From positions 96,001 to 160,000 of IMG/VR virus record IMGVR_UViG_3300024054_000269: 64,000 nucleotides of DNA; one strand, 5' to 3'. This stretch comes from a virus. The number at the start of each line of letters is the position of its first letter. Position 1 is the stretch's first letter. A program made the translations under genes and the position numbers. Below are positions 50 to 62,820 of the stretch, in pieces. The notes under the pieces were generated by a model. The model was not told where the DNA came from. It saw only the letters and a program-made list of their open reading frames with translations, and made no database searches.

Positions 50-328
50 ATGTCAGATATTTCTTTCAAAGACCTTTCAGAAGAAGATGTGAAAGTTGCT
101 TCTGAAAAATTAAGTGAATTTGCTTGTTATGTGTTATGTTTACCAAGGAGCAGACTCAAAGAAGTAAAACTATTTGACATGACAGAACTTAATAACAAAA
201 CAGGTCTTGAATTTATTTGGGACCCGCCATTATCTGAAGAACAAAATTCAAGGTTATTTGAAGTCCTAAAAATTGTAAATACATTACTTGGAGGTTCTGA
301 GTTGCAAAAAATAGATAAAGAAGCATGA
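50..328 (+). CDS. hypothetical protein
   Basis: 92 aa ORF; stop overlaps next start (ATGA). Confidence 0.5.
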   Translation: MSDISFKDLSEEDVKVASEKLSEFACYVLCLPRSRLKEVKLFDMTELNNKTGLEFIWDPPLSEEQNSRLFEVLKIVNTLLGGSELQKIDKEA

Positions 329-528
329 ACCACAAATTTAAAGAGATTTACTGCGGCCAAGACTTTAAAATATTAAAATGCAAAGTTTGTAGCAGTGTGT
401 TTTACAATTTTGATTTTAACATTGACAACAAAAAATATGTAGAATATTCAAAATTCATACATGATGTTTTCAAGTCTGATTCAGAAGGGTGCGATGTAAA
501 ATTAACTAGGGACGTTGTTGAATCATAA
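325..528 (+). CDS. small CxxC protein with shared C-terminal motif
   Basis: CKVC; ends GCDVKLTRDVVES. Confidence 0.65.
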   Translation: MNHKFKEIYCGQDFKILKCKVCSSVFYNFDFNIDNKKYVEYSKFIHDVFKSDSEGCDVKLTRDVVES

Positions 529-736
529 AAAGATAAAATGCTTAGAATGCGGACGTAGTTCGTCCAGGTATTTTATTGACAGACATCCAAAATATTTTCG
601 GTTGCTTAGTTTCTGTTTTATACACGCATCAACAAGAAAAAATTATGCATCAAGAGATTTGCAACTTTATATGTTATACGGATTATATGAAATAACAAGA
701 AATGAATTTTTATCGTACGAGGTTTTAGAATCGTGA
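515..736 (+). CDS. small CxxC protein with shared C-terminal motif
   Basis: CLEC; ends RNEFLSYEVLES. Confidence 0.6.
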   Translation: MLNHKKIKCLECGRSSSRYFIDRHPKYFRLLSFCFIHASTRKNYASRDLQLYMLYGLYEITRNEFLSYEVLES

Positions 737-1038
737 CAGATCATGGTCCATATCGTACAGCAGCAATTGTTGTGCGACACAGCAGGCCAAAGCGAACCAT
801 ATCAGGTCGATTTCGTTCGTTGCTTCGTCGTTTTGCTGTTCGTTGGTATGGAAAATTTCTTATTAGATATCCAGTTAAATGCCCGACATGCAACAAACGA
901 AGTTGGAATCCGCACGCTATCCGTCGCAATGGTCCTGGCTTGCTTTCAGCTGGTGATTATTCAATAAGAGCTAATCGTTATCGGTGTGGTCATGGTGGCA
1001 TGCGTGTTGGACTCAGTGGAATGGTCAGATTAGGATGA
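733..1038 (+). CDS. basic hypothetical protein, possible Zn ribbon
   Basis: CPTC...C motifs; coupled GTGA/ATGA overlaps with both neighbours. Confidence 0.5.
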   Translation: MTDHGPYRTAAIVVRHSRPKRTISGRFRSLLRRFAVRWYGKFLIRYPVKCPTCNKRSWNPHAIRRNGPGLLSAGDYSIRANRYRCGHGGMRVGLSGMVRLG

Positions 1039-1421
1039 AACGCGCTTTTTACTTTGGTTCTTTAGGTTACGGTCACTTTTTGCACGACGATACTGGCAGA
1101 AGCCGATTGAAGCCAAAAGTGCTAGACGTCAACTTCCCATGGGAAATGGAACTATTAGACACAGGCCTACTCAAAAATGGTAAAGTGCCAGACTGGCCAG
1201 ATGGCCGTGTCTTCTGGACATGCGGTAAAGATGCACAAGCTCACCTTTGGTTTGCTTTCTTTTGGTGGGATCGTTCAGGTGACAAACGTCCTGGTTCAAA
1301 TTCTGGTTTTTACGTAAATGGGTTTAATTTTAATGAACGTAACGAAGCATTTGAATTTGCATGCAAAGAATGGCCGTCAGTTATCAAACGTCAAGAATTT
1401 CCATTAATGTTGCAACCATAG
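1035..1421 (+). CDS. phage hypothetical protein
   Basis: Trp-rich, WWDRSGDKRPGSNSGF; likely start ATG 1035 (overlaps upstream stop) rather than 984. Confidence 0.55.
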   Translation: MKRAFYFGSLGYGHFLHDDTGRSRLKPKVLDVNFPWEMELLDTGLLKNGKVPDWPDGRVFWTCGKDAQAHLWFAFFWWDRSGDKRPGSNSGFYVNGFNFNERNEAFEFACKEWPSVIKRQEFPLMLQP

Positions 1422-1629
1422 TTATGCCACCAGAAATTGTTAATCTTATTAAACACAATAACTATTTCAGTTTTCTTTGATTGTTCTCTAAGTTTTTAAG
1501 CAATCATTTTATATATTGTTTTACAATTATTTCTGCTAGGTTTTTCTTAATTGTGTTTTGTTCCATACAAACATTTATCAGTATCGTCCTGTATATCATC
1601 TCCTCTTAATCAGTCGAGACAATTGAAAC

Positions 1630-20931: not shown

Positions 20932-21159
20932 ATGATAGATTCTCAACACATTTTTATTTCGATAAATGGTAAAATCCATTTGTTTAAACGTGTTTTGCGT
21001 GTTAATTATGCAAAAAGCGTGTCATTCTGTGGTTTGGAACCAATGCCTGCAAGGCCGATAACAATTCAATCGACAGATTTAAGTGAATGGGATAAAAAAA
21101 GTTGTTTGTGCCAAGAGTGTAAAAATCTAATATTTACATCAGAGGTCTGTGATGGTTGA
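20932..21159 (+). CDS. hypothetical protein
   Basis: 75 aa with CG...CQEC, overlaps next gene. Confidence 0.45.
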   Translation: MIDSQHIFISINGKIHLFKRVLRVNYAKSVSFCGLEPMPARPITIQSTDLSEWDKKSCLCQECKNLIFTSEVCDG

Positions 21160-37294: not shown

Positions 37295-37510
37295 TTAGCC
37301 GTTCACAACTTGTTCAGTAAGACTCTCGTTGCATCCAATAGATGATGTTATCTCTCTATCTGGATCCCAGGCTTGTATGTAACCTTGCAGCCCACATTTT
37401 TTGCACACGTAATTAAATCGCCTTTGTGTTTCTACCCATTCGTGACTATCGTTTTGTTCGTATTTCAACGGGTGTGCTTTGTGCAAATTCTTTAATGGGT
37501 GTATGGCCAT
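37295..37510 (-). CDS. small CxxC protein with shared C-terminal motif
   Basis: GGAGG SD; CKKC; ends GCNESLTEQVVNG. Confidence 0.65.
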   Translation of the reverse strand: MAIHPLKNLHKAHPLKYEQNDSHEWVETQRRFNYVCKKCGLQGYIQAWDPDREITSSIGCNESLTEQVVNG

Positions 37511-38603: not shown

Positions 38604-38737
38604 TTGATTATTAACCAAATTACATAGAATGATATCAAAATCGATATTACAACTGAAGATGATAAATCTTTTTCAGTCTGTTTTTTGAGCGCTAAGTTTG
38701 CTTCAAACAAAGCCGATTGTTTTTTCTTGTCTAACAT
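38600..38737 (-). CDS. small membrane protein (below ORF-track cutoff)
   Basis: 45 aa MLDKKKQ...VVISILISFYVIWLIIK, ATGA-coupled to the sigma gene. Confidence 0.45.
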   Translation of the reverse strand: MLDKKKQSALFEANLALKKQTEKDLSSSVVISILISFYVIWLIIK

Positions 38738-39376: not shown

Positions 39377-39829
39377 TTACAGTTGCTGTCTTTTCTGTAA
39401 GATGGAACCAACTAATTTAATAAAATCCACAAAATCTGGATTACACAAAGCAATCGGGCTTCTGTTTTCTCTGATAGTCAAAATAGCTTGTTCAGGTGTC
39501 ATATTTCTAAACAACATTATGGATAACGCAACAATCAACCCCGATCTGTTCAGGCCTTGATAACATGTGATTAAAACTCTTTTTCCGTCTTTGAGTTTAT
39601 TTACAATTCCAGACGCAAGTTTAATAGCTTTTCTCATTTGTTCTTTAGTAAGTAAGTTTAACCCATCATCATATAATTCTATTCTTTCAACTTCCAAACC
39701 TGGAAAATCCGTCGGTTGGTATTCAACAGCACACAAAACCAAACAGTCAAAATCAACACATAATTCATCACCCTCCGGAGGTGCGCTTCCCATCCAGAGG
39801 TTATCAATTATTCTATTTGCGCCCATCAA
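39377..39829 (-). CDS. dual-specificity protein phosphatase
   Basis: CX5R active site TCYQGLNRSG. Confidence 0.85.
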   Translation of the reverse strand: MMGANRIIDNLWMGSAPPEGDELCVDFDCLVLCAVEYQPTDFPGLEVERIELYDDGLNLLTKEQMRKAIKLASGIVNKLKDGKRVLITCYQGLNRSGLIVALSIMLFRNMTPEQAILTIRENRSPIALCNPDFVDFIKLVGSILQKRQQL

Positions 39830-40877: not shown

Positions 40878-41151
40878 GCTTCACAGCTTTTTTGCGTCCA
40901 CCACCAAAAACAGACGTTTTTTGTTCTTGACGAACTCTTTTCAATTGTTCTAATTCAGCTTGGCACGATGCCAAGATTGCATTTGTTCTGTGCAGTTGTT
41001 CTGATACTTTCATGACAGTTAAACCATCAAGATTTCTTTTGTTCTTTTTAAGAGATTTCAAATATGACTTGACTGTAACAATCAACCCATTTGTTAAATC
41101 AATAAATTCGGCATCAACTATCGGATTTCCTCTTACGACTGATCTAGGCAT
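40867..41151 (-). CDS. hypothetical protein
   Basis: 94 aa ORF. Confidence 0.45.
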   Translation of the reverse strand: MPRSVVRGNPIVDAEFIDLTNGLIVTVKSYLKSLKKNKRNLDGLTVMKVSEQLHRTNAILASCQAELEQLKRVRQEQKTSVFGGGRKKAVKLRG

Positions 41152-41602
41152 TTTGTTTTTCCTCGCTTTGTCTTTCCTCGTTGAATTTTGAACGGACTTC
41201 CATCAAAATCTTACCAAGCATGTTTTTCCCGCTTCCATCGCCACCATCACCCCAATAAGAATCATTTGAAGTATGTTCTACCAACGTTTCTTCACCAGTC
41301 TCAAGCAATTGCTGTTTCAAACTTTCATTTTGAGCAAACTTTTCATACACGATTTTCTTCATAATTTCATTTCGAATACGATCCCAACCAATTTGTGGTT
41401 TAAATTTCCAGGCCAATTTTTTTGCTTCGCCCGGAGTTTTAGTGTTTCTAATTAATTCTTCTTTATCTGTGCCATCGAACTTTTTTGCCTGAAACGCATG
41501 TTCTGAAGTCAGGTAAATTTTGCCATCAAATTCAAATTTGGCCGGGTAGAAATTTGACAAGAATCCGTATTCTGACCGAGTTCCATAAAATTTAATGGCC
41601 AT
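41144..41602 (-). CDS. NADAR (YbiA-like) family protein
   Basis: FLSNFY, TSEHAFQAKKF, KFAQN..L...LL.TG..LVE...D.YWG.G..G.G.N.LG..LM.VR. Confidence 0.92.
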   Translation of the reverse strand: MAIKFYGTRSEYGFLSNFYPAKFEFDGKIYLTSEHAFQAKKFDGTDKEELIRNTKTPGEAKKLAWKFKPQIGWDRIRNEIMKKIVYEKFAQNESLKQQLLETGEETLVEHTSNDSYWGDGGDGSGKNMLGKILMEVRSKFNEERQSEEKQNA

Positions 41603-44322: not shown

Positions 44323-44678
44323 TTCTTTTCTCCATTTGTGAATTTCCTTATCAGATCATTCACGCTGGTCTCATTGACAGGTTTAATAATCCAGCGTCCA
44401 AACATCATTGAAAGAAATACTTGATTTTCTCTCGATGTTGAACCTTTTGATATAAATAGAACATTTTTTTCATACGTTGGAAATTTTTTCTTAATTTCAA
44501 AATACAACCTTTGATTTGTGTCTATGTCGATTATGACAGCGCCATATTTATGTTTTTTAACTAATGGTAGCGCTTCATTTAAATTTCTAGCCGTATCAAT
44601 TTTACTATATTTCTTTTTCAGAATTGTTATCAACACGTCTCTAGCGCTTGAGTCACTATCAACAATTAAAATATCCAT
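44319..44678 (-). CDS. single-domain response regulator receiver
   Basis: ILIVDSD...AVIIDID...FISK...IIKPV. Confidence 0.7.
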   Translation of the reverse strand: MDILIVDSDSSARDVLITILKKKYSKIDTARNLNEALPLVKKHKYGAVIIDIDTNQRLYFEIKKKFPTYEKNVLFISKGSTSRENQVFLSMMFGRWIIKPVNETSVNDLIRKFTNGEKK

Positions 44679-45667
44679 TATTCAATTTCCCAAGGTGGTG
44701 GTCCATCCCAACCTAAACCGACTTCCCAAATCTCGTTTACTGGTTCATAATTGCTAACAGAAGTGATTTTATTATTTTTACCATCAGCCCATTTTTGGGT
44801 GAAAATTGACGTTACGATTAGCCCATCTGAGCCTGATTGAATTTTCTTTTTATATTTACCGAGAAATTTGCCGGTCTTTCTATAAGTTTTTACATACAAA
44901 CCATTAGTTGACATTCCAAACATGTATGAAACAGTTGGATGATTGCCAGACCCAAAAACTGATATTTTTAGAATTGCTTCTTCATCATCAGACAAATATG
45001 ACTTAATGGTGACAGGAAAATCATATTGATTTTTTATTTTTAGATCAACTGCTTGGCAATTTTTATCTTCATGCCCATTACATTCTTTTGGAAAATTAAC
45101 TGTGGCATCAAGGCCCTTTTCTATATATTTAGATGGCCTTGAATGCGATCTTCTCTCAACTATTTCAAGACCAGCAAATCTTGATACAGCGTATAAAGTT
45201 GATGAAACCTGACAAACACCTCCACCAATTCCAGACGTCATTTCACCAAGGAAAATTAATGGGGCTTCCAGGTAGCCGTTTTCTGTCGTTCTTGGTCCAA
45301 CATATTTATTGAAACTAAATATTTCATTGGGTTTTATAGTAATGTCTATATTTGTTCTCTTAACATTCAAGTATCTGTTTTTTTCTTTCCCAAAACTTTT
45401 AAGCTTAGTTGAGTAAGTCGAAATAACCTTGTCTTGGTCTTCTCTTGGTTTCTCTTGCCTTTTTTGTTCGGTTTTACCACCTGAATCACCTATTGATGAA
45501 GAAATTGAAGGAGAGTCAAAAGAGATGGCTTTATCATGTGTCGTACATGATACTACATATACAACAATAGGTAACCCTTGAGGAATCATGTTTAAGAATT
45601 TAGTCATAGAAATTACCGCGAATGGTACACTACGTGTGTTAGTTGATGGGTTGTATATTGGATTCAT
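44678..45667 (-). CDS. VanW-family protein
   Basis: FSFNKYVGPRT.ENGY..AP.I..GE...GIGGGVCQVSSTLY...R.SHS..Y...G.DATV...DLKIKN. Confidence 0.88.
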   Translation of the reverse strand: MNPIYNPSTNTRSVPFAVISMTKFLNMIPQGLPIVVYVVSCTTHDKAISFDSPSISSSIGDSGGKTEQKRQEKPREDQDKVISTYSTKLKSFGKEKNRYLNVKRTNIDITIKPNEIFSFNKYVGPRTTENGYLEAPLIFLGEMTSGIGGGVCQVSSTLYAVSRFAGLEIVERRSHSRPSKYIEKGLDATVNFPKECNGHEDKNCQAVDLKIKNQYDFPVTIKSYLSDDEEAILKISVFGSGNHPTVSYMFGMSTNGLYVKTYRKTGKFLGKYKKKIQSGSDGLIVTSIFTQKWADGKNNKITSVSNYEPVNEIWEVGLGWDGPPPWEIE

Positions 45668-45884: not shown

Positions 45885-46274
45885 TTGATAATGGATTTTA
45901 ACATATATCATAATATCGCGAATAGAATTGCAGGCGGCCCCAACTTTGTAGCCACTGGAAAAGCCATATCAAGCAATTCTTCCACAAACATGGCAAGAGT
46001 AAGTGATGGATACATGAGTACAGCTCTTAAAGAGGGTGAAGATCCGAGTTGGCCAAGAGTTAAAACACTATATATGTCTAAATTAAAGCCGCTGTTCAGA
46101 CATCTTGAAGAATCAATACGAAACGAAAGTATGATTGAAACTCAAGCAACTATAAAGGGAATTGTTGAGAATTTTGCTTTAATGTTTAAATCAATGGATA
46201 AACCAACAATTAAAAGAAAAACTGAAATGTTTGTAGATCGTATACTTTCAGAGAAAAACATTAACCTTCGATGA
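45885..46274 (+). CDS. protein with N-terminal IANRIAG motif
   Basis: MDFNIYHNIANRIAG. Confidence 0.55.
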   Translation: MIMDFNIYHNIANRIAGGPNFVATGKAISSNSSTNMARVSDGYMSTALKEGEDPSWPRVKTLYMSKLKPLFRHLEESIRNESMIETQATIKGIVENFALMFKSMDKPTIKRKTEMFVDRILSEKNINLR

Positions 46275-46569
46275 TGTCTTTTACTAAATTATTTTCACAG
46301 GTATCACCCACCATAAAATAATCATCACCAGAACCAGGCGATCTTCCACCAACAAGACCTAGCGCTACAACGCTACAACGCTTACATATCCAAACTTCGC
46401 TTTTTCTCTTTCTATTGTCAAGTAAATCATCAAATATTGTTTGTTGTTTTTCCCAGTCATGTGATTTAGCAACTTCACTATTTACGTTTTCCATTCTTGT
46501 TGTGTCATTGTTTGACATTAGAAAATCTTGTGCGCTAACCAAGTTGACGCACCAACTATAAAAAACCAA
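46261..46569 (-). CDS. small CxxC protein with shared C-terminal motif
   Basis: WICKRC; ends TCENNLVKDIIEG. Confidence 0.6.
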   Translation of the reverse strand: MVFYSWCVNLVSAQDFLMSNNDTTRMENVNSEVAKSHDWEKQQTIFDDLLDNRKRKSEVWICKRCSVVALGLVGGRSPGSGDDYFMVGDTCENNLVKDIIEG

Positions 46570-46854: not shown

Positions 46855-47145
46855 GTGTCAAAAATATTATGTTGGTTATTTGGCCACAAAGATATTCCAA
46901 AAGATTTTCTAAGGGCCAAAAATAAAGAATATGAAAGTCAAAAGCCAGCGTATAGTCATTCAGTAAAAATTGGCGATATCGTTATTAATTGCAGCACATT
47001 AACAGTGTCCTTTTTTGAATCACACGTCATTAAAATCAAACCTTGTCTAAGATGTGGTGTTTATATAGAATTAAAAAAACTAACAGAGGCTGAGATTAAC
47101 GAAGCAATTAATAACATGAAAACAGAAGATCTTCTAAATGGTTAA
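46855..47145 (+). CDS. small protein with shared C-terminal motif
   Basis: LCWLFGHK...CLRCG; ends AINNMKTEDLLNG. Confidence 0.6.
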   Translation: MSKILCWLFGHKDIPKDFLRAKNKEYESQKPAYSHSVKIGDIVINCSTLTVSFFESHVIKIKPCLRCGVYIELKKLTEAEINEAINNMKTEDLLNG

Positions 47146-47459
47146 CATTCAACCACTTGGAATGTTTTGTACATGTTCTTGTCAATTTCTTTAATTTCAA
47201 TAAGGTATAACTTTTTTGATAACATTTCTTCGGCATGAAAATCACAAAACTTAAAAACTGTTGGTTCTTTATTGATTAGTGTGTACAAATAATATTTGGT
47301 CGCAATCGCTTTGCACCCCCATAGCGAAGATGAATCATAATCACACATCTCATGTTTATTTTTTACTATCCATTCATTAAGTTTCTCCATTTGTTCTCGA
47401 ATAATATTGTTTTTTGCAATTGCAATTTTCTGAATTGTTTTTAATTGATGTTTGTTCAT
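47142..47459 (-). CDS. small protein with shared C-terminal motif
   Basis: C...C...FCDFH; ends DKNMYKTFQVVEC. Confidence 0.6.
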   Translation of the reverse strand: MNKHQLKTIQKIAIAKNNIIREQMEKLNEWIVKNKHEMCDYDSSSLWGCKAIATKYYLYTLINKEPTVFKFCDFHAEEMLSKKLYLIEIKEIDKNMYKTFQVVEC

Positions 47460-49257: not shown

Positions 49258-49653
49258 TTAACCGTCGATCAAAATCTCAGTTAACTTCAAATCAAATGCG
49301 GTTTTTATCCTCTCAACTATTTCATCTTCTGTTCCAACAAATAAAAACACTTTCTTGTCATATCTATGATACCAAACTTCTCTTCCGTAAAGAGATTTAT
49401 GAAAATTCATACCACGTGTAAATGCAACATATTGACTAGTTTTATCTTTAACATTTTTCTCTGCATAAGTTGGAGAATCAGATACAACTTCATCAGCGAT
49501 AACTATTAATTGGTTTAGGATTTTTGAATATGGTTTGGCATCTGATTTATAGTTATAATTTTTATTTAGCGTTAATTCATCATTAAGCTCATCTCGAATC
49601 AAAACAGATAATTGTCTAAACAATTTGTCTATTTTGTCGGATTGTTTGATCAT
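49258..49653 (-). CDS. small protein with shared C-terminal motif
   Basis: Ends AFDLKLTEILIDG. Confidence 0.6.
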   Translation of the reverse strand: MIKQSDKIDKLFRQLSVLIRDELNDELTLNKNYNYKSDAKPYSKILNQLIVIADEVVSDSPTYAEKNVKDKTSQYVAFTRGMNFHKSLYGREVWYHRYDKKVFLFVGTEDEIVERIKTAFDLKLTEILIDG

Positions 49654-49949
49654 CAGCCTTCAATCACACATCTGGTTTTGACTTCATCACACGTTTCGAG
49701 CGGGGCTGATGACGGCGTTCTAATATTTCTTCTGCCGATTACCAAATCCTGCATTTCGTATTTGCATTTTATACAAACGTATTTCATATGAAACGAATTC
49801 TTTTCTGGTATTCTGTGCCAAATTGTAGCAAACATATGACCACCGGTTTCGGAGTATGATTTCAACGGTTCTGGGTATTTACCAATCAAATTCATACTCC
49901 AAAGAGAAGTGTCGAAGTTTACTAATTCTTCACTAAAGAATGAGTTCAT
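49653..49949 (-). CDS. small CxxC protein with shared C-terminal motif
   Basis: H.W...YVCIKC; ends TCDEVKTRCVIEG. Confidence 0.6.
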   Translation of the reverse strand: MNSFFSEELVNFDTSLWSMNLIGKYPEPLKSYSETGGHMFATIWHRIPEKNSFHMKYVCIKCKYEMQDLVIGRRNIRTPSSAPLETCDEVKTRCVIEG

Positions 49950-50269
49950 GAATCAATCACTTCTTTTGTACGCTGCTCTAGAACATGTTCTACACAGGCG
50001 GTGATGTTAATGTCGTTGCCTGATGTCACATTATCGTGTATTGCCTTACATAAATCAATTAATATTAAATTTATAAATGCTTGCATATTAATTGATTTTG
50101 ATATGCGACCAACTCCATCACAAACTTCACATTTAATATACAAATACATTACATTTTGATATGAATTCCTTATTTGACATTTTCCGCTCCCACCGCAATT
50201 CGGGCAACGTTCAGAAATCAAAAATTCAGTATCGCTCGAAACATACTCTCTGTCGCTGTAAATTTTCAT
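49946..50269 (-). CDS. DnaJ-type Zn-finger small protein with shared C-terminal motif
   Basis: CPNCGGSG...CEVCDGVG; ends VLEQRTKEVIDS. Confidence 0.6.
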   Translation of the reverse strand: MKIYSDREYVSSDTEFLISERCPNCGGSGKCQIRNSYQNVMYLYIKCEVCDGVGRISKSINMQAFINLILIDLCKAIHDNVTSGNDINITACVEHVLEQRTKEVIDS

Positions 50270-51995: not shown

Positions 51996-52232
51996 TTAAC
52001 CATTGATAACCTCCTCTGTTTTTAGACAATTTTCACATTTATATTTTGATTCAAAGTCCGGTGTCAGTAAATCGCTCACACTTTCTGTACGTTTCTTACG
52101 TGCAACCCAATCTTTTGGCTTGTCAAATTTTAAATATAATTTGTTCCACGGATCGAAGCACAACTTAGCTTCACCTGGTATTACAACACCGCAATAATCG
52201 CATGTAAAATTTATTACTATAGAAAGCCCCAT
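51996..52232 (-). CDS. small Zn-finger protein with shared C-terminal motif
   Basis: TCDYCG...CENC; ends CLKTEEVING. Confidence 0.6.
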   Translation of the reverse strand: MGLSIVINFTCDYCGVVIPGEAKLCFDPWNKLYLKFDKPKDWVARKKRTESVSDLLTPDFESKYKCENCLKTEEVING

Positions 52233-52589
52233 ATGACAATTTTACATTGTTTAAGAATGGCTTTGCATTCAGCCTACAGTTCATGTAGGTTTGAAAGGTT
52301 AGACGAAGATTTAATATTGAAATTTGAGAACTTGGCAAAATATGAATTTATCAAACTCATTGCCAACAATTACCCAAATTATGTAGAAGCCGCAAAGACT
52401 ATTTCCATAAGCACTGTGTATACCGGATTTTGTTTAATCAGATTCAACATGAGATCATCAAGCTTCAACATGAGATCATCAAGCATAGACCTCGAACTTT
52501 ATGTGGATATAAATGACATATTGATGAAATCAAAAATATTACAAGAAATTAACGATGAACAAAAAACCTCAGAGATTATTAACGCATAA
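52233..52589 (+). CDS. small protein with shared C-terminal motif
   Basis: Ends INDEQKTSEIINA; contains a 21 bp tandem duplication at 52443-52484. Confidence 0.55.
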   Translation: MTILHCLRMALHSAYSSCRFERLDEDLILKFENLAKYEFIKLIANNYPNYVEAAKTISISTVYTGFCLIRFNMRSSSFNMRSSSIDLELYVDINDILMKSKILQEINDEQKTSEIINA

Positions 52590-53036
52590 TCAGGCTGATA
52601 ATACATCAAGAGATTTCAATTCATCGACTGTTAGAATAAGTGAAAGGGCCTTCGGTAAAAATTCATCAGCACCATTTTCAGTACCACCAACTTCAGTTTT
52701 CCAATCTTTGTTTATAAAGTATTTGGCTAACCCAGCAGCAGTGTCCCAACGTATAGAATTAAACAGTTGGTTTCTTAAACTATCAAGTTCCTGGTATGAA
52801 CCGCATGTTTCTAAAGCATCACATCCAGAACAAGACCCCCATCCAAACACTAAAAAACCATATTGAATGTCATTTTTGACATGACGACGTAATAAACACC
52901 AACTAGAACCTTGATATTCACCAAGTTCGTGTATTAATAAAGCTTCTACATCCATACTTTTTATTAAATCTGAATATGAATGTGCCCCGTTGTAATTACC
53001 ATTTACATTAGGAAAGCATTCTTCAATCGGTTTCAT
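52590..53036 (-). CDS. protein with shared C-terminal motif
   Basis: YQGS...GFLVFGWGSCSGCDALE body; ends TVDELKSLDVLSA. Confidence 0.65.
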   Translation of the reverse strand: MKPIEECFPNVNGNYNGAHSYSDLIKSMDVEALLIHELGEYQGSSWCLLRRHVKNDIQYGFLVFGWGSCSGCDALETCGSYQELDSLRNQLFNSIRWDTAAGLAKYFINKDWKTEVGGTENGADEFLPKALSLILTVDELKSLDVLSA

Positions 53037-53571: not shown

Positions 53572-53759
53572 GGTTTAGTCCTATACGGACCGTCATCTTT
53601 GATTTTCTCATCAGTCAAGACTTCAACAGAACAGGTTAAGTCTTTTCCATAATTCGGAAATTCCGGATTACAAACTCGACTTTTATCGATATTGAAATTT
53701 TTTACTACATAGTTCCTGACTATTCTACATAACTCTTCTTGATTGAAAACGTACTTCAT
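53568..53759 (-). CDS. hypothetical protein
   Basis: 63 aa coupled ORF ending DGPYRTKP. Confidence 0.45.
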   Translation of the reverse strand: MKYVFNQEELCRIVRNYVVKNFNIDKSRVCNPEFPNYGKDLTCSVEVLTDEKIKDDGPYRTKP

Positions 53760-54568
53760 ATTGACTCCCTTAAATTGTTGTATAAATTGGCATATAAAAC
53801 TTCCGGATTATTTTCTGACAAACCTGACATCTGTCCATCGTTTAATTCTATTACGATCCATTCACCAGATTCAGTTTGGGCCACGTCAATGGTGAAAAAA
53901 TTGATATTTGATTTGATTGAGTTTATGGCTTTGGCCATAAACTCAATCGGAACTTCTTGAGATGATGGAATTTTCCCAAGTTTTTCTTTTATTTCCTCTA
54001 CATGTGAAGACCAATAATAACCGCTACTTATAACGCGGCCGTTTAATATGAAAAATCTGAATTCTTTAGTTATTGGTAAATCTTGCAATCCGATCATGTA
54101 AGTATGTAACGGAATATATTGTCTTATTATTATGTCTTGTTCACCAATCAATGAATCTGCACACAATAAACTGTGAATTTCTATGGCTCTTTTCTTATCT
54201 TCAGCAAACATGTGGCTCTTCCATAGAAATTTCTTTGAATTAGTCTCGCCTTTAAGCACAAAAGGACCATCTTCTGGCAAATCTTCAAGTCTAGTCCAAG
54301 TTTTTGGTGTGAGACCGTCCAAATCAACTGCCCAATTTTTGCAATCTGCAACATATTTGTGCTGTTTGTAAGTATTGATTAATTTTGCGTTAACAGACTT
54401 AATATCATCCTCTAATTCTTTATAAAATGGTAATACACTGTATCTACCAATTACTAAATCGTCAGATTTAATTTGCATCCTAGATGAATAACATTCAAAA
54501 TACTCATTCGCCGAATTGGATTCGTATTTCCAGTCACCTAAGTCCCTGTATAGTATGACAGGATTCAT
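53756..54568 (-). CDS. ATP-grasp domain protein (DUF4343/R2K-like)
   Basis: PFVLKG..SKK, IIIRQY, EFRFFI..G, FFTIDVA...G.WIVIELNDGQMSG. Confidence 0.8.
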   Translation of the reverse strand: MNPVILYRDLGDWKYESNSANEYFECYSSRMQIKSDDLVIGRYSVLPFYKELEDDIKSVNAKLINTYKQHKYVADCKNWAVDLDGLTPKTWTRLEDLPEDGPFVLKGETNSKKFLWKSHMFAEDKKRAIEIHSLLCADSLIGEQDIIIRQYIPLHTYMIGLQDLPITKEFRFFILNGRVISSGYYWSSHVEEIKEKLGKIPSSQEVPIEFMAKAINSIKSNINFFTIDVAQTESGEWIVIELNDGQMSGLSENNPEVLYANLYNNLRESI

Positions 54569-54891: not shown

Positions 54892-55113
54892 TCATTTTGT
54901 TCTGTGTGTTATTAAACCGTGTGTCAAATCATAGGGTGAAACTGCAACTCTAACTTTATCACCTGGAAGAACTCTTATGTGATTTCTTCTCATGCGACCT
55001 GAAAGTTGGGCTCGAACGTGTGAGCTTGATTGTGTTAATTTGATGTTATATTGACCACCACCCATGGCTTCTTCAACAACACCATCAAGTTCTATTAAGT
55101 CGCCTTTGCTCAT
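54892..55113 (-). CDS. infA: translation initiation factor IF-1
   Basis: IELDGVVEEA...V.AQLSGRMRRNHIRVLPGDKV.V..SPYDLT.G.I..R. Confidence 0.95.
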   Translation of the reverse strand: MSKGDLIELDGVVEEAMGGGQYNIKLTQSSSHVRAQLSGRMRRNHIRVLPGDKVRVAVSPYDLTHGLITHRTK

Positions 55114-55418
55114 CCGTATAACACCTCAAGTGTTCTAACCTGTGCTATTAAATCTTCTTCTGACGTAGCAGTCAAGAGAAACACGTTAACTAATTTTTGT
55201 TGCATGTTTGACCGCAAAAATGGATTTGTTAATATTGCTTCGTACAACAATAAATTGTTTTGTTCCGCATAATCAATAGCCACATATGTTTGTGCTTTCC
55301 TTATCGTGGTTGATTGACTAGAACATTTCGCATATGAATATGATTCAACAATCGATTCCGGAAGACGTTTCAATATGCGGCATACTTCTTCAGGTGCTGC
55401 TAATGGAAATTTATTCAT
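55110..55418 (-). CDS. small protein with shared C-terminal motif
   Basis: Ends LIAQVRTLEVLYG. Confidence 0.55.
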   Translation of the reverse strand: MNKFPLAAPEEVCRILKRLPESIVESYSYAKCSSQSTTIRKAQTYVAIDYAEQNNLLLYEAILTNPFLRSNMQQKLVNVFLLTATSEEDLIAQVRTLEVLYG

Positions 55419-56095: not shown

Positions 56096-56383
56096 TTATA
56101 TTTTGTTGGTTTTCACAACCAAATCACACCATTCGGCAATAATGTCGCCGTGGCATGCTTGTGGTGAACAGTAACAACCAAGCGTTTTGTTTGAACAAGT
56201 TTTATAAACTAATTTAGCAAACGAATGATCAGAGTTTATTTTTTCATAAAACCAAATTCTGTATTTGTCTATAACTTCCTGACGATTTCCGTCTTTACCA
56301 ATTATGAACTTGTTGCCAAATGGTCCAGGTCTACCAATGTAAATATCGTACTTCTCACGACGCAGATTGACAACTTTGGTCAT
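56096..56383 (-). CDS. DUF4326-family protein
   Basis: YIGRPGPFGNKF...KY..W...LGCYCSP..CHGDII. Confidence 0.85.
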   Translation of the reverse strand: MTKVVNLRREKYDIYIGRPGPFGNKFIIGKDGNRQEVIDKYRIWFYEKINSDHSFAKLVYKTCSNKTLGCYCSPQACHGDIIAEWCDLVVKTNKI

Positions 56384-56850
56384 GAATCTATCACATCAGA
56401 AGTGGTCAAACAGTTTGTTATTTCTGAGACCATTTTTTGTATTTGGTATGCATCAATTCCCTTATTTAGTAAGGATCTTATTGTTGTTGAAAGTTTTAGT
56501 GTCAGTTCAGGAACCTGAGAAGAAGTTGCGAAATTGTTAACATTATCGGTAAATTGAACCATAAACTCATATGGTGATTTAACATACCACAAATGTAAAT
56601 CTTCACCAATTAAACAAGCCATAATATGGCTACGTGTGTTTAATGGGTTTACAGCTTCAACGAATCTTTTTATTGAAACCTGATCACCATTGGCAGCTTT
56701 TATGATAGATCTTTTCGTTAGCTTCTTTTGGAAGATTTTTATTATCGCGTCAGGTTTTGGATCAATTTTTCGTTTGTAACCAGAACTTAACAATGATCTC
56801 GCCCGATTTAACCCAACAACATCTGATAACATGAAAAAATGAAGATTCAT
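56380..56850 (-). CDS. protein with shared C-terminal motif
   Basis: Ends ITNCLTTSDVIDS. Confidence 0.6.
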   Translation of the reverse strand: MNLHFFMLSDVVGLNRARSLLSSGYKRKIDPKPDAIIKIFQKKLTKRSIIKAANGDQVSIKRFVEAVNPLNTRSHIMACLIGEDLHLWYVKSPYEFMVQFTDNVNNFATSSQVPELTLKLSTTIRSLLNKGIDAYQIQKMVSEITNCLTTSDVIDS

Positions 56851-57450: not shown

Positions 57451-57456
57451 ATTACA
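57451..57456 (-). promoter_or_regulatory. TGTAAT -10-like box
   Basis: GTGTAATTTCAAAT-ATG; the same 12-mer recurs at 55662-55673 and in tandem at 59508-59531. Confidence 0.55.
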
Positions 57457-57910: not shown

Positions 57911-58180
57911 TTATGGTTCTGCAAAAGCAGGACATTTATAACCACAATATTTACATCCGACTTCGCGGTTGTCTTCGTATGGATCAAAATGTTTTTCATA
58001 CGCATGACCACAACCACGGCGAGCGCATTCAACAAATTGGTTGTGGCTGTGATCTAGTTTTCTTTTTCCGTATCCAAGACCGCACAATGCTTCATACAAT
58101 TTCTGCTGATCAAATTGATCGCCGTTCCTATAAGCATCGCAGAATTCATATAAAACTAATTCTTCATGAAATTCCATCAC
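57911..58180 (-). CDS. small Cys/His-rich protein
   Basis: C.RRGCGH.YEKH...GCKYCG.C..F. Confidence 0.55.
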   Translation of the reverse strand: MMEFHEELVLYEFCDAYRNGDQFDQQKLYEALCGLGYGKRKLDHSHNQFVECARRGCGHAYEKHFDPYEDNREVGCKYCGYKCPAFAEP

Positions 58181-58587
58181 CAGTCACTCCCATAGCCGTC
58201 ATCGTGGTTGCGACGTCGTTTGTTCTTCTTTTTAAATTTTCTTGGCTCAGATTCACTACTGGTCGGTGGCGGTGAAAATTGACTCTGTCCAAATGACTGT
58301 CTATTATTTTGAAAATTTGGTCTAGGTCCTGATTTATCTCTCTCTTTTGCTTCACTAACTCTCATAGACCTTCCGTCAATTTCTCTTCCATCTAATGCCA
58401 ATATAGCTGATTGTGCCTCTGCGTCAGAACCAAGCGTAACGAACGCAAAACCTTTTGACCTTCCAGTTTCACGATCAATTATTACGTCAATTCTTTTTAC
58501 AGTTCTTCCATCTTCGGAAAAAACCGATCTCAACGTGAGCTCGGTCGTGTTATATGATAAATTGCCTACGTATACTCTATCACCCAT
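58177..58587 (-). CDS. RRM RNA-binding protein
   Basis: RNP2 VYVGNLSY, RNP1 RSKGFAFV, LDGREIDGR.MRV.EA. Confidence 0.92.
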   Translation of the reverse strand: MGDRVYVGNLSYNTTELTLRSVFSEDGRTVKRIDVIIDRETGRSKGFAFVTLGSDAEAQSAILALDGREIDGRSMRVSEAKERDKSGPRPNFQNNRQSFGQSQFSPPPTSSESEPRKFKKKNKRRRNHDDGYGSDW

Positions 58588-58598: not shown

Positions 58599-59183
58599 CT
58601 ATGTTTTATGTTCTTCATGAAGATCGACATTTGTCAATTCTTCGTCATCTTTTGGTAGAACCGTAACAACGAATGGAACGCATCCTACTCCGTCTCGTTT
58701 TATAACAAACATACAACCGGACGGAGACATCCATAATTCGTCCCCGTGTTTTGATTTCTGATTAATTCTTTTAGATTCATAAACCAACTCTCTGATTTTA
58801 ATTTCTGCTTCATTCCTTGATAGATTAGGTTCCCACCTTTTGATATACCTATCAACGGCATGATCAGCTATATCAATTTCACCTTTTCCAAGTCTTCCGC
58901 GTCTTTTTGAATCTAGTGAAGTTTTACTCTTTTTTGGCGGTTTATATTTACCTATGTATTTCGGCGGACGAGAATTCTTCATTAATCTTGCATATGATAG
59001 TCTTAAATCAGGGGCAAATCTCAAATTGAAAGCTGCCTTTGGCCCGCCAGATAAAAGTTTGTGCATCACTTTTTTAAGAAGTGACGGGTCAGCTGAGGCA
59101 AGATATGAAAGTTTATTCATCTCTTCTTTCGAGAGATTATCTTCACAGCATTTATCAACTAATTTTTTCAGTTCATCGTTCAA
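58599..59183 (-). CDS. hypothetical protein
   Basis: C-terminal IADHAVDRYIKRW (RelE-like fold possible). Confidence 0.5.
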   Translation of the reverse strand: MNDELKKLVDKCCEDNLSKEEMNKLSYLASADPSLLKKVMHKLLSGGPKAAFNLRFAPDLRLSYARLMKNSRPPKYIGKYKPPKKSKTSLDSKRRGRLGKGEIDIADHAVDRYIKRWEPNLSRNEAEIKIRELVYESKRINQKSKHGDELWMSPSGCMFVIKRDGVGCVPFVVTVLPKDDEELTNVDLHEEHKT

Positions 59184-59509
59184 CTTTCCACCAGACTTTG
59201 AATCTTTAAAAGATCTAAATCAGTCATTAAATCTGATATATTATAATTACCATATTCGTGTATTATTTTGAATTCATAGCCCACCTGACCAAATCCAACT
59301 ACAAATTTTGACGTTGACGTTGGTGCGCACGCATCTTCTTGAAATTCACCTTCCCATCCATCAATTATTTTATGTTTTTTTAGTTTATCAAGAACTAATT
59401 TAATTCTATTGTTCACATGTTCATGTGCAACATTCATTTCAATAAGTTTCAAAATGTTGTTCAGAATGGCCTCGTATGCAATTAATCTTTTCTCTATTAA
59501 ATTCAACAT
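59180..59509 (-). CDS. small protein with shared C-terminal motif
   Basis: Ends DLDLLKIQSLVES. Confidence 0.6.
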   Translation of the reverse strand: MLNLIEKRLIAYEAILNNILKLIEMNVAHEHVNNRIKLVLDKLKKHKIIDGWEGEFQEDACAPTSTSKFVVGFGQVGYEFKIIHEYGNYNISDLMTDLDLLKIQSLVES

Positions 59510-59624: not shown

Positions 59625-59909
59625 TTAATCTATCCTATTATCCAAGTCGTAGAGGATGCTTAATAAACTATCAAATGATATACTGTCAATATTTGGTAAA
59701 CAAATATTGTCAATCCCATCAATTTTGAGCGAACAATTATGTTTGTTTATTATTAAAACAAAATCACGTTTAACACTAGGCGTAATTAACTCGAATGATT
59801 TCGAAATTGGTGCTGAAATTTTGTTCTCATTTATTAAGTTAATAATAGTTTCAGACATGGATTTAATTATTTCATTTTGGTCATCTTCAACACGCAGAAC
59901 ATATTTCAT
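59625..59909 (-). CDS. hypothetical protein
   Basis: 94 aa coupled ORF. Confidence 0.45.
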   Translation of the reverse strand: MKYVLRVEDDQNEIIKSMSETIINLINENKISAPISKSFELITPSVKRDFVLIINKHNCSLKIDGIDNICLPNIDSISFDSLLSILYDLDNRID

Positions 59910-60283
59910 GTATACAACATCTCCATAGTTTTATGTTCGTCAATTTTCTGCTTCAGTTTATCAACTAACAAATAATAAAAGGTCTCATGATTTAATTCAG
60001 TTAAATTATGTACAACAACGTAAGCTTCAGATATTGGAGTTACGTACAATCTCCAACCATTACTATGTCTTTCTTTAGCAAAAACATACAAATCGCCATG
60101 ATATGGGGTCGACGTTTCACTGAATCTAAACATAATTGACGTTCTATCAACTCTTACATGTTTAGGCTTAAGGTACTTGGATAATCTTTCACTATATGGA
60201 TTATATGGATCAACCCATCCAATTTCTCTTAACACACTCTTCAAATACTCAAGCTGAAGCTCCTTGGCAGTCAGTTCCATCAT
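59906..60283 (-). CDS. small protein with shared C-terminal motif
   Basis: GGAGG SD; ends KIDEHKTMEMLYT. Confidence 0.6.
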   Translation of the reverse strand: MMELTAKELQLEYLKSVLREIGWVDPYNPYSERLSKYLKPKHVRVDRTSIMFRFSETSTPYHGDLYVFAKERHSNGWRLYVTPISEAYVVVHNLTELNHETFYYLLVDKLKQKIDEHKTMEMLYT

Positions 60284-60383: not shown

Positions 60384-60746
60384 ATGCTAGTTGAGGGGTT
60401 CCAAAAATTATGGGGTAAAATAAATAACCCAAGTTCAGGTTCCCCAGATGTCTCAATTGGTGATATCTTAACGTTGATGGCAAAAATACTATCTGAGTAT
60501 GATAACAGAAACTTAGAGCCTATCGATAAATGGGTGTTAGCTTATTTAAATATTACAAACGGTTCTGCCAAAATGGATATCGTATTTTCTTGGCAGGACG
60601 CTGCAATTGGTCCAACTTATGGTATGCCATTTGATGAATTAGAAAAAAGAAGACATGAAGAATCAAAAAATATTAATAAAGCTGTGAAGAAATTAATTAA
60701 TTCAAAATTAATAAAACTTGAAAGCGAAAAACTTTGTCTGGTGTAG
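60384..60746 (+). CDS. hypothetical protein
   Basis: ATG 60384 lies 7 nt after TGTAAT (ORF track start 60375). Confidence 0.5.
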   Translation: MLVEGFQKLWGKINNPSSGSPDVSIGDILTLMAKILSEYDNRNLEPIDKWVLAYLNITNGSAKMDIVFSWQDAAIGPTYGMPFDELEKRRHEESKNINKAVKKLINSKLIKLESEKLCLV

Positions 60747-61054
60747 ACCTAGAAATTTATGATGCAATAGTTAATGAAATACAAGAAAAGTCCGATCCGA
60801 ATAGTAAGGGAAAGTCAAAAACTAATTTAATTGAAGCAATTTTTACTGACGACATTAATCTGTTTAATCATTTCGAATTGAATGGAGTTGCCTTCATACT
60901 TGCCATCAATACATCAACCAATGATGTGTATTATATAGTTGATAATGAAACTGGTAAATCGATAGATGTAGACATGTCAATAAAAGAATTCACTGGGAAT
61001 GACCTGAAACGAAAAATAGAAGAACTCTTAGCACTTGAGGTTGTAGAATCATGA
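60734..61054 (+). CDS. small protein with shared C-terminal motif
   Basis: Ends KIEELLALEVVES. Confidence 0.6.
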   Translation: MSGVDLEIYDAIVNEIQEKSDPNSKGKSKTNLIEAIFTDDINLFNHFELNGVAFILAINTSTNDVYYIVDNETGKSIDVDMSIKEFTGNDLKRKIEELLALEVVES

Positions 61055-61081
61055 AATCAGACAAATCACGACGAGAGAATA

Positions 61082-61672
61082 ATGGAAATTTATATAAGCA
61101 CGGATGTTGAGACAGATGGGCCGATACCTGGCCCAAATTCAATGCTAAGCCTCGGGGCAGCAGCATTTAAAAACTATGAACTTATAGGAACATTTTCGGT
61201 CAATCTGAGCCCTTTACCCGGGGCGTCGCCAGATCCAAACACAGAAGCTTGGTGGAAACAACAACCAAAAGAAATATACAATGCATGCAGGACTGATCAA
61301 AAGCCGCCGGAAGAGGCAATGAAACAGTATGTAGATTGGGTGTTGTCTTTTATTAATAGGCGAGACGGAACTAAACCGGTATTTGTAGGTTATCCAGCAA
61401 CTTTTGATTTTCTTTTCGTTTATTGGTATCTTATCAAATTTGTCGGTTCATCCCCATTCAGTTTTTCAGCTCTAGACATTAAGTCTTATGCTATGGCTAT
61501 GTTAGGTTCCGAGTACGGAAAATCAACAAAGAAGAACATGCCAAAAAGATGGTTCAATAATTTACCTCCACATACACACAAAGCCGTTGATGACGCAATC
61601 GAACAAGGTTATCTGTTTATGAACATACTTAAAGATAATAAAATGGCGCAGCGCGTGCAGGGCACCGGCTAA
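61082..61672 (+). CDS. DEDDh 3'-5' exonuclease (Rv2179c-like)
   Basis: [17 protein letters not shown]...FD..F..Y...HTH.A.DDAIEQ. Confidence 0.85.
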
Positions 61673-62086
61673 GCAGATGGTATACCGCGCCCGCACCGAA
61701 CTGGGGAGGAAGCCATGAGCGAGCATCGAGACGGCGCCCAGCGTATCGCAGCCGAACGCGCTAGGCAGAAGGGCGCCGAGGGCTGGTCGGACGAGCACGA
61801 CTCCGCCCACGACAACGGAGAGCTTGCGTGGGCCGCAGTGTGTTACGCGGCGCCGAAGGCGGTCTACGTGGAGCGCCGCGGCCAGGATTTGGTCACGTTT
61901 GCGGACCCCTGGCCGTGGGAGCCGAGCGACGACAAGCGAGTGCGCCCCTACGGCACCCTGAAAGAGCCCACCGAGCAGCGCATACGCCAGCTCGAAAAGG
62001 CCGGGGCGCTCATCGCGGCTGAGATTGACCGACTGCTACGGGATGCCGGCCATGTCTGAGACGAGTAAGCGGGTGTTGGCATGGAC
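61643..62086. other. high-GC horizontally acquired segment
   Basis: About 67% GC by hand count of part of it, against about 30% flanks; sharp borders. Confidence 0.85.
61715..62059 (+). CDS. phage hypothetical protein (high GC)
   Basis: IAAERARQ...EGW..EHD..H..GELA.AA.CYA...WPW...R...L.KAGALI.AEI.RL; GGAGG SD. Confidence 0.8.
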   Translation: MSEHRDGAQRIAAERARQKGAEGWSDEHDSAHDNGELAWAAVCYAAPKAVYVERRGQDLVTFADPWPWEPSDDKRVRPYGTLKEPTEQRIRQLEKAGALIAAEIDRLLRDAGHV

Positions 62087-62092
62087 ATCTAT

Positions 62093-62494
62093 CTAAGACT
62101 CAATAATTTCTCTAGTTTTTAATTCATTAATTGCTTTCATCAGCGATTCTTTTGTCAAATAATTGAATGAAATACACATACTAGACGAACCAAATATAAA
62201 CGAATTTAATCTACCGATCCCTAAAAAGTATTTTCTTACTTTCTTGTTTCCGTTTCTTTTAATTCTATGTTCGACTACCATAAAATATTCAATATAATTA
62301 AATTCAAAATTGCACACAAAAAAATCTTCACCTATATCAACTTCAACTAAATCACAATAATCGAATTGTTCCGCTCTGTTTAAAAACACTTTAGTTTTTC
62401 TAATACCGAAAAATTCCTTAGAAACACTAATACAAGTTTTAAATTTGATTTCATGCGAAATACGCTTCAATTGTTCTAAGTCTTGTTCTTTCAT
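62093..62494 (-). CDS. small protein with shared C-terminal motif
   Basis: Ends AINELKTREIIES. Confidence 0.6.
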   Translation of the reverse strand: MKEQDLEQLKRISHEIKFKTCISVSKEFFGIRKTKVFLNRAEQFDYCDLVEVDIGEDFFVCNFEFNYIEYFMVVEHRIKRNGNKKVRKYFLGIGRLNSFIFGSSSMCISFNYLTKESLMKAINELKTREIIES

Positions 62495-62820
62495 TACGAT
62501 TCCACAACATCCCTTGTGTACATAGAAACTATAGCATTATACAAATCAGTTGCGGTTATTTCCTTGAATGAAATATAAATTCGAAACTCATCACTAACAT
62601 CATCACGTAAAACTACGTGATTTTTACAATCTTTGATAACTAGTGTTCTTCCATTTGCATGGTCACCGTCAAAACTGAATTTAAACATGTAATTTTGTTC
62701 ACCATGAATTTGATTCTTGATTATTAACCCTTTCAAAAATTGACCAGTGTATCCGGAATTGTATGCAATAATCTCAATTAATACATCGCTAAGGTAATTA
62801 ATTAGTTTCTGATATCCCAC
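62494..62820 (-). CDS. small protein with shared C-terminal motif
   Basis: Ends AIVSMYTRDVVES; TGTAAT box 8 nt upstream. Confidence 0.6.
   Translation of the reverse strand: MGYQKLINYLSDVLIEIIAYNSGYTGQFLKGLIIKNQIHGEQNYMFKFSFDGDHANGRTLVIKDCKNHVVLRDDVSDEFRIYISFKEITATDLYNAIVSMYTRDVVES

Follow-up and report, generated by a model that had tools for sequence, protein, structure and literature searches.

A C-terminal tail shared by unrelated small proteins of a huge phage, and a candidate reader in its relatives

Why would a phage end one in seven of its proteins with nearly the same few residues? The question is raised by a 64,000-nucleotide stretch of DNA from an uncultured huge phage (36% GC), bases 96001-160000 of the 182,302-bp IMG/VR virus contig IMGVR_UViG_3300024054_000269, which we call the window. 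A preliminary description of the window had listed 21 open reading frames (ORFs) with unrelated bodies and a common C-terminal peptide, and had proposed that the peptide addresses or docks these proteins to one partner. Here we show that the shared tail is real and larger in extent than first noted, that related genomes carry it in versions of their own, and that in these relatives it changes in step with a helix of a small BRCT protein. The tail may be a docking tag, and the candidate reader lies in the neighbourhood of this BRCT protein.

The tail is enriched at true C-termini

A self-trained simple gene caller predicted 253 genes on the contig, which CheckV estimates to hold ~40% of the genome. 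Gene ends were scored with a four-residue pattern, [VILM][VILM][EDN][SGACT]-stop, and with a position-specific scoring matrix (PSSM) of the last 12 residues, applied leave-one-out with a pass threshold of 8 bits or more. The four-residue ending was found on 38 of the 253 genes, where 0.9 would be expected from its internal frequency (202 of 55,831 positions). The PSSM passed 35 gene ends against 0.03 expected, 15 of them inside the window. Counted back from the stop codon, the tail of this phage has the form [DEN](-11)...T(-7)-x-[ED]-[VI]-[VIL]-[EDN]-[SGA]; nearly all carriers have an acidic residue and then exactly one small residue before the stop, and the final residue is S, G or A in 36 of 37 strict carriers.

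All 21 peptides of the preliminary description were found where it had placed them, directly before stop codons. As carriers, 14 of them pass the PSSM and one more, 49946-50269, fits; those at 47142, 59180, 59906 and 62494 score weakly over 12 residues, yet their last four to seven residues match. Those at 42101 and 55110 are not supported, and neither is the ORF at 55644, which had been offered as a weaker candidate. The carriers, with window coordinates and PSSM scores, are as follows.

325-528, + strand: carrier, 67 aa, CxxC...C-D zinc-ribbon-like, end KLTRDVVES; score 19.4
602-736, + strand: carrier (ORF open from 515), end FLSYEVLES; score 10.5
20932-21159, + strand: carrier overlooked in the preliminary description, 75 aa, end FTSEVCDG; score 8.5
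37295-37510, - strand: carrier, 71 aa, zinc-ribbon-like, end SLTEQVVNG, convergent with the upstream + strand gene; score 20.5
46261-46542, - strand: carrier, 93 aa, end NLVKDIIEG; score 19.2
46855-47145, + strand: carrier, 96 aa, end MKTEDLLNG, 4-nt overlap with the convergent 47142-47459; score 17.5
47142-47459, - strand: probable carrier, 105 aa, end YKTFQVVEC; four-residue pattern, score only 0.1
49258-49653, - strand: carrier, 131 aa, end KLTEILIDG; score 12.0
49653-49889, - strand: carrier, 78 aa, zinc-ribbon-like, end VKTRCVIEG; score 19.8
49946-50269, - strand: carrier, 107 aa, DnaJ-type CXXCXGXG zinc finger (weak Pfam match), end QRTKEVIDS; outside the gene set, no PSSM score
51193-51648, - strand: carrier, 151 aa, end DMVKLIVEG; score 17.6
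51996-52232, - strand: carrier, 78 aa, end LKTEEVING; score 25.6, the top score
52257-52589, + strand: carrier, 110 aa (first listed from 52233), end QKTSEIINA, abutting the convergent 52590-53036; score 19.1
52590-53036, - strand: carrier, 148 aa, end LKSLDVLSA; score 12.8
56380-56832, - strand: carrier, 150 aa, end LTTSDVIDS; score 15.9
59180-59509, - strand: probable carrier, 109 aa, end LKIQSLVES; four-residue pattern, score 5.2
59906-60280, - strand: doubtful carrier, 124 aa, end HKTMEMLYT; score 3.9
60734-61054, + strand: carrier, 106 aa, end LLALEVVES; score 21.5
62093-62494, - strand: carrier, 133 aa, end LKTREIIES; score 24.7
62494-62688, - strand: carrier, 64 aa, end MYTRDVVES, last seven residues as in 325-528; score 4.8 over 12 residues
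42101-42427, - strand: claimed carrier, unsupported, end YDVMMS; score -6.3
55110-55418, - strand: claimed carrier, unsupported, end LEVLYG; score -4.2

Selection acts on the peptide

Because GAGGTGAT read in frame gives E-V-I, an origin of the tail in a Shine-Dalgarno sequence or another signal of the next gene had to be excluded, and several carriers do overlap the next start codon. However, the share of tailed genes is the same whatever lies downstream: 14% before close co-directional genes, 14% at 13-40 nt, 14% at larger distances and 17% before convergent neighbours, so that the tail is not a Shine-Dalgarno artefact, as the preliminary description had argued. The information in the tail resides in the first two bases of each codon, the third holding only 0.1-0.3 bits, and spurious, unselected ORF ends match the four-residue pattern in only 4 of 1,219 cases. 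Conservation extends to positions outside the pattern used for selection, namely D/E at -5, T at -7 and D/E/N at -11. The two TRDVVES copies (325-528 and 62494-62688) differ at four of seven codons, all synonymously, as had been noted before. The codon-position information, the extra conserved positions and these synonymous differences together indicate that selection acts on the peptide, and we regard the probability of a nucleotide-level artefact as negligible.

Two convergent pairs, 46855-47145 (+)/47142-47459 (-) and 52257-52589 (+)/52590-53036 (-), meet at their stop codons with TTAA in common. Owing to this stop-to-stop overlap, the tail-coding stretches of such pairs are partial reverse complements and could form a hairpin.

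The carriers are small, mostly orphan proteins

When carriers were compared by blastp and phmmer after removal of their last 16 residues, only g21/g22 and g249/g250 were related to each other. The bodies are thus unrelated, as first described, and body homology does not join them into a single paralogue family, although remote homology among them may still exist. The carriers range from 44 to 242 aa (median 106 aa), with and without cysteines, and the tag stands on one in five genes of 150 aa or less. A zinc-ribbon-like layout, CxxC...C-[DEN], sets about eight of them apart as a subgroup; here the tail helix begins at the last cysteine. Pfam gave only four weak matches for 42 carriers, and a search for homologues of the carrier 56380-56832 among 5.8 billion proteins returned only the protein itself.

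The last 40 residues of 62093-62494, modelled with AlphaFold2 from an alignment of 39 tails, form one helix from -19 to -2 at a predicted local distance difference test (pLDDT) score of ~82. Hydrophobic residues at -12/-11, -8/-7 and -4/-3 form a stripe along this helix and make it amphipathic. The tail is therefore predicted to be an amphipathic helix of 12-20 residues that ends hydrophobic-hydrophobic-acidic-small-COOH.

Related genomes carry the tail in versions of their own

No phage record matched when 7 kb of the window were searched by megablast, and a pattern scan for a DNA polymerase also gave none. The tail was found in several related genomes, for which the counts given here are of genome-specific four-residue endings and the expected values derive from their internal frequency. 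The syntenic fragment G001 (132 kb), with 30-70% identity to the window genome in its core proteins, has tails of the form hydrophobic-hydrophobic-x-[DE]-[VI]-M-[ED]-S on ~13 genes by eye (5 endings against 0.02 expected). BLAST found no orthologues in G001 of the window genome's small carriers. The complete 393-kb genome G003 (50% GC) has 50 endings against 0.5 expected, and clustering placed the tail C-D-x-x-[VI]-[VA]-x-x-[VI]-[MH]-[EDK]-S on at least 84 of its 587 ORFs, about 14%; these tagged ORFs cluster at one genome end. The complete 427-kb genome G004 has 90 endings against 0.11 expected, and clustering placed hydrophobic-V-x-x-[VI]-M-[EDN]-S on ~200 of its 674 ORFs, about 30%.

A further relative carries tails of the window's own type (TEQVVDS, STSEVVES, AEEVINS) on 12 of 35 ORFs against 0.04 expected. 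It was assembled from the IMG/VR contigs 3300032053_000004 (202 kb) and _000010 (141 kb), whose ends (L228 end/L272 end) share a 127-nt overlap of 100% identity that lies within the zincin-vWA gene described below. Since the overlap is identical and both contigs come from one sample, they are pieces of one genome of at least 342 kb (L272 and G008). Other relatives have a ...V-L-E-S type of tail, and more distant contigs end in ..K-x-L-L-K (L003) or ..K-L-I-F-[ST] (L263, L255). The tail is thus conserved between genomes without common carrier bodies.

The preliminary description had found the tag absent from structural proteins and recognisable enzymes. For structural proteins this probably stands. 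The only pattern-matching gene of the window genome with an orthologue in G001 encodes a 1996-aa fibre-like protein ending LVIDS, which is probably a chance match because the G001 orthologue ends LVIDN. For enzymes it needs amendment: a DHH/DHHA1 phosphoesterase, encoded outside the window and outside the pattern set, ends TKVVDL and its G003 orthologue ILDVMKE, and judged by these ends it looks like a genuine tagged enzyme. Likewise, the word phage-wide, as first used, fits the accessory genes but not the genes beyond them.

The tail of L003 (a Logan contig of 31.9 kb) is seen on ~20 of the 39 genes around an R2K_3 gene, which end [ST]-C-x-[ED]-x-K-[MLF]-[KR]-x-L-L-[KLM]-stop; the layout of this basic tail (Cys, acid, hydrophobic pair) resembles that of the window tail, while the charge at its end is opposite. 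G004 has a second, minor tail, ..[PA]-K-K-I-[IV]-T-K-stop, on ~10 small genes (L201, ~72.8-76.9 kb of the record).

A three-gene neighbourhood in the tag-rich regions

In the tag-rich regions of G003, L220, L268, L269, L271 and L272/G008, genes for a MoxR-like AAA+ ATPase, a DUF2201_N+DUF2201 protein (hereafter zincin-vWA) and a small BRCT protein adjoin one another; in G004 the three are more scattered. The BRCT proteins of G003 and G004, ~115 aa each, are both encoded within the tag-rich region. The zincin-vWA protein has an invariant HExxH motif and an invariant DxSGS motif of its metal ion-dependent adhesion site (MIDAS).

The small BRCT family comprises 144 members, of which 121 were aligned. 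Residues T31, G32 and K81, which constitute the T-G...K phosphate pocket, are invariant, and the family matches Pfam BRCT. Its top Foldseek matches are the RFC1 p140 BRCT region (2k7f, 2ebu; 33-35% identity), and Dbf4 H-BRCT (3qbz) matches as well. The predicted structure has a core at pLDDT ~90 preceded by a helix at residues 8-16; by its modelled fold the protein is an RFC1-like BRCT domain with an extra N-terminal helix. The N-terminal sequence, M-A-R-x-N-E-x-T-D-[LM]-[WA]-x-[VI]-x-E-[VI]-M-E-[VP]-[ST], contains the core of the tail, V-x-x-[VI]-M-E, and the M position of this motif is M in 109 and L in 10 of the 121 sequences. The family was found in tag-positive loci only; BRCT matches in tag-negative loci are ordinary LigA domains.

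A 264-aa protein with zinc-finger, helix-hairpin-helix and BRCT domains (G003 L192:844-1638, - strand; G004 L211:9834-10628, + strand) is not a member of the small BRCT family. By its appearance it may be the smaller subunit of a split NAD-dependent DNA ligase, for which the heterodimeric ligase of phage PR1 (PDB 9hu3) offers a comparison.

Tail and BRCT helix change together

When the BRCT motif is set beside positions -3 and -7 of the tails, the N-terminal BRCT helix is seen to switch between M, L and V/I together with the tails that its genome carries.

G004: BRCT V..VME; tail -3, M in 98 of 108; -7, V/I
L271: BRCT V..VME; tail -3, M in 9 of 10; -7, V/I
L220: BRCT V..VME; tail -3, M in 7 of 10; -7, V/I
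G003: BRCT V..VME; tail -3, M in 35 and H in 13 of 57; -7, V/I
L268: BRCT VLE; tail -3, L in 3 of 5
L269: BRCT VLE; tail -3, L in 2 of 3
L272: BRCT T-M-Q-V-I-G; tail -3, V/I in 11 of 13; -7, T in 6 of 13
Window genome: no BRCT on the contig; tail -3, I 19, V 14, L 7 and M 0 of 40; -7, T in 21 of 40

Two additional metagenome loci, L278 and L281, have tails of the M/H/Q type, consistent with their VME BRCT. A search of representative sequences added V/I-type BRCT variants, P0245 (..AAVIGV) and P0272 (..EVIEVG); P0272 had no match among viral contigs. Six of the ten L-type BRCTs are closest, by nearest-neighbour identity, to an M-type sequence, and from these sequences the M-to-L switch has probably arisen several times. 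Moreover, column 64 of the BRCT core (YL[IV]TN) is V in 7 of 10 L-type against 9 of 109 M-type sequences (p=2e-5); L272 likewise has V there. This co-variation suggests that the helix packs on the BRCT domain.

The C-terminus of the MoxR protein (..RKAMKD, ..RKALRD or ..GVLKSK) was also considered as a tail that co-varies with the others and was rejected, since L222 (..KSLND) and L271 (..QAFKD) both have M-type tails.

A possible docking tag and its candidate reader

We consider the most plausible explanation, with a probability of about one half, to be that the tail serves at the C-terminus as a portable docking tag, recognised by a phage partner that co-evolves with it, the likeliest candidate for this partner lying in the BRCT/MoxR/zincin-vWA neighbourhood of the relatives. 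Selection would maintain the tag on accessory proteins that evolve fast and are mostly orphans, and a single partner would read it and co-evolve with it within each phage lineage. On gene neighbourhood, the likeliest reader would be found among the MoxR-like AAA+ ATPase, the zincin-metallopeptidase/vWA protein and the 115-aa RFC1-like BRCT protein, and this module might take in the tagged proteins as one class, for instance in order to process or remodel them or to remove them at a set time. Part of the preliminary description is thereby retained, namely a protein-level tag on unrelated, fast-evolving small proteins that behaves like a common handle; the dialects of the relatives, which change in step, agree with it. 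A host hub protein, also suggested there, might be the partner. Its suggestions of a ligase acting on the free C-terminus (see below) and of phosphothreonine recognition by an FHA domain through T at -7 are not supported; position -7 is T in 21 of 40 tails of the window genome but V/I in G003, G004 and L271, although no search aimed at an FHA domain was made. A PDZ- or PTS1-type ligand was rejected too, as these need a hydrophobic last residue or an S-K-L-like end, which the S, G or A at the end of the tail does not provide.

Several observations weigh against a reader in this neighbourhood. The window's own contig has no BRCT, DUF2201 or MoxR gene, but with ~40% of the genome at hand the missing module decides neither way. 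The N-helix of the small BRCT protein was modelled at a pLDDT of only 60-66, and the copy of the motif in it, being internal, lacks a free carboxylate, which seems to matter judging from the strict register of the tails; by chance, each genome also has 10-15 internal copies of the motif core. The V/I-type link comes from one relative genome and the L-type link from two short loci with three to five tails each. Since the tag-positive genomes are all of one clade, shared descent may partly account for the co-occurrence with the BRCT protein. About 40 distant huge-phage loci with MoxR and zincin-vWA are mostly without detectable tails nearby, and the MoxR C-terminus tracks the tails inconsistently (L222, L271). 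A complex prediction of zincin-vWA, BRCT, Mg and the 40-residue G004 tail, with alignments for each, scored 0.00; it was run without controls and speaks neither for nor against binding.

A bolder version of the docking tag is doubtful. In it, a clade of huge phages would possess its own protein-addressing code, a C-terminal helix on 15-30% of the proteome that is read by BRCT/MoxR/zincin-vWA and docks at the site of the BRCT helix, whereby the accessory arsenal is recruited, processed or removed on time as a class while code and reader drift together from lineage to lineage, with M, L or V/I at -3 and V or T at -7.

Other explanations of the tail

The same amphipathic helix with its hydrophobic stripe could instead be homotypic, with the tails and the BRCT N-helix pairing as small coiled coils or bundles without a separate reader. 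Mutual pairing would be expected to change all copies in a genome in step, the BRCT copy included. However, the single small residue after the acidic one and the strict register with the stop codon point to recognition of a free end, and the co-variation of BRCT column 64 suggests packing on the domain rather than on another helix, which makes homotypic pairing unlikely. Also unlikely is one vastly expanded paralogue family, in which bodies have diverged beyond recognition, the helix is the most constrained part and no common partner exists. Tandem arrays, the sub-families g21/g22, g249/g250 and CxxC...C-[DEN], and the obvious paralogue runs in L003 and L263 would agree with such a family, but carriers of 44 to 242 aa, with or without cysteines and with bodies that phmmer does not relate, would not. 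Neither would the tail-like ends of the DHH/DHHA1 enzyme, the motif at the N-terminus of a BRCT protein, or a tail that is conserved between genomes while the carrier bodies are not shared. C-terminal degrons are a known principle, and the carriers are small, accessory and, in the complete relatives, clustered near one genome end, as might be expected if the tail had early proteins removed at a set time by a host protease (ClpXP, Lon or FtsH class). Yet the acidic-plus-small ending [EDN][SGA] differs from the non-polar ..LAA-COOH that an ssrA/ClpX-type degron needs, and a search for a phage ClpP found none. The phages that keep this tail family have 36-55% GC and presumably infect different hosts, and the tail nevertheless changes in step with a phage protein, so that we consider a host-read degron distinctly unlikely.

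A capsid-loading signal, by which the tail would do at the C-terminus what the T4 capsid-targeting sequence (CTS) does and bring many small proteins into the large head for injection, appears quite improbable. The V-M-E|S ending does resemble the hydrophobic-x-Glu sites cut by T4-type prohead proteases; T4 prohead cleavage occurs at (L/I)-x-E, the T4 CTS is MKTYQEFIAE, and the BRCT copy of the motif is N-terminal like the CTS. A virion-assembly role has moreover been proposed for the MoxR/vWA-peptidase pair of jumbo phages (Iyer et al. 2021, PMC7824862). On the other hand, 90 to 200 different proteins per genome would need to be packaged, carriers and module lie far from the structural block in early-looking regions, and a cleavage site one residue from the end would make an odd protease substrate. 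The ligase raised in the preliminary description corresponds to the following gene.

53756-54568, - strand: R2K_3 ATP-grasp protein (PF14243/PF18299), predicted peptide ligase amid carriers

The R2K clade is predicted to modify proteins by ligating amino acids (PMC4431377), and the gene stands between carriers both in the window and in L003, so that the tail might be a substrate tag for C-terminal amino-acid addition of the kind performed by RimK or TTL. R2K_3 is common and strongly conserved among huge phages, as judged from its more than 1,700 homologues, which are 53-67% identical and in many cases lie on contigs of 100-420 kb, while the tails differ. It is absent from both complete, tag-rich relatives, G003 and G004, and 78 of 80 R2K_3 neighbourhoods have no shared tail; on these grounds R2K_3 was rejected as the reader, and a role of the tail as its substrate is very improbable.

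Comparison with known systems

Short C-terminal tails common to unrelated phage proteins are known from T4, where those of gp43, gp33 and gp55 dock on the gp45 clamp, and from T7, where the acidic tails of gp2.5 and gp4 dock on the polymerase. The tail described here is like them in being shared by unrelated proteins, and theirs dock on one hub; it differs in its motif and in its carriers, which are dozens to hundreds of orphan accessory proteins rather than two to four core enzymes, the replication enzymes being untagged. Terminal peptides that label unrelated proteins as a class for one receptor also include PTS1 (SKL-COOH, read by Pex5), encapsulin cargo-loading peptides, the T4 CTS and ssrA, read by ClpX. 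Unlike these, the window tag has a sequence of its own and an acidic and small end. The T4 CTS is N-terminal and cleaved, whereas the window tails are C-terminal, though their ending fits hydrophobic-x-[ED] followed by a small residue. As for the BRCT protein, RFC1 p140 (2k7f, 2ebu) and Dbf4 H-BRCT (3qbz) likewise have an N-terminal helix before the domain and conserved T-G...K residues. Their helix serves binding of a 5'-phosphate DNA end or of Rad53, and we know of no client-protein family with a copy of it.

The closest published counterparts concern the neighbouring genes. Kaur, Burroughs, Iyer and Aravind (2020, PMC7159879) reported on zincin peptidases encoded near vWA-MoxR ternary conflict systems; the substrates of these peptidases are small, variable proteins whose C-terminal peptides, of the 'FxSxx-COOH' type, are conserved. 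They also proposed that the vWA MIDAS binds an extended peptide. The relatives share with these modules the small diverging proteins with a conserved C-terminal peptide and the zincin, vWA-MIDAS and MoxR neighbours. In contrast to them, the phage-borne system has its peptidase fused to vWA, uses another motif, showed no radical-SAM partner and has the tag on 15-30% of all genes instead of one or a few precursors; cleavage in the phages would be an analogy. Iyer et al. (2021, PMC7824862) described a MoxR AAA+ protein with a vWA protein bearing an N-terminal metallopeptidase in 'group 2.2' jumbo phages, for which processing of structural proteins was also proposed. The DUF2201_N+DUF2201 protein and MoxR-like ATPase of the relatives are this same pair, while the paper mentions neither tagged small proteins nor a small BRCT protein. 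Our literature search found no published description of such a tag; hub-docking C-terminal tails are known, but their occurrence on this scale and with lineage dialects was not found described in the searchable literature.

If the docking reading is correct, the shared tag marks 15-30% of a huge-phage proteome, otherwise unsortable small orphans, as one functional class, and the reader could be fished out with the peptide. The MoxR/zincin-vWA pair, as yet uncharacterised in jumbo phages, would then gain a role, as would ~140 small BRCT proteins, and the tag would provide a simple sequence rule for annotating huge-phage genomes and separating lineages.

Neighbouring genes and an upstream motif

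Genes with recognisable domains lie amid the carriers in the window.

58177-58587, - strand: RRM RNA-binding protein
41144-41602, - strand: NADAR protein
39377-39826, - strand: dual-specificity phosphatase
44678-45667, - strand: VanW-like protein
37554-38618, - strand: sigma factor

Outside the window, a full-length RuvB homologue (L096:9706-10653) adjoins carriers in three genomes. Three paralogous large proteins (L092:14687-16237, L093:1366-3021 and L093:9296-11251) have Mom-like/GNAT C-terminal domains, two of them with an additional MTES_1575 nuclease-like domain, and all three are conserved in G001.

The analysis of promoters and timing revealed only a TGTAATTT motif close upstream of start codons, which gives no early or late assignment. 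In the form TGTAATTT(CAA) it stands 6-8 nt upstream of ~20 start codons of the whole contig, at the usual place of a Shine-Dalgarno sequence, with examples in the window at 57456 (-), 38624 (-), 33194 (+) and 20919 (+). Possible roles are that of a -10 box for leaderless transcripts and that of a translational operator.

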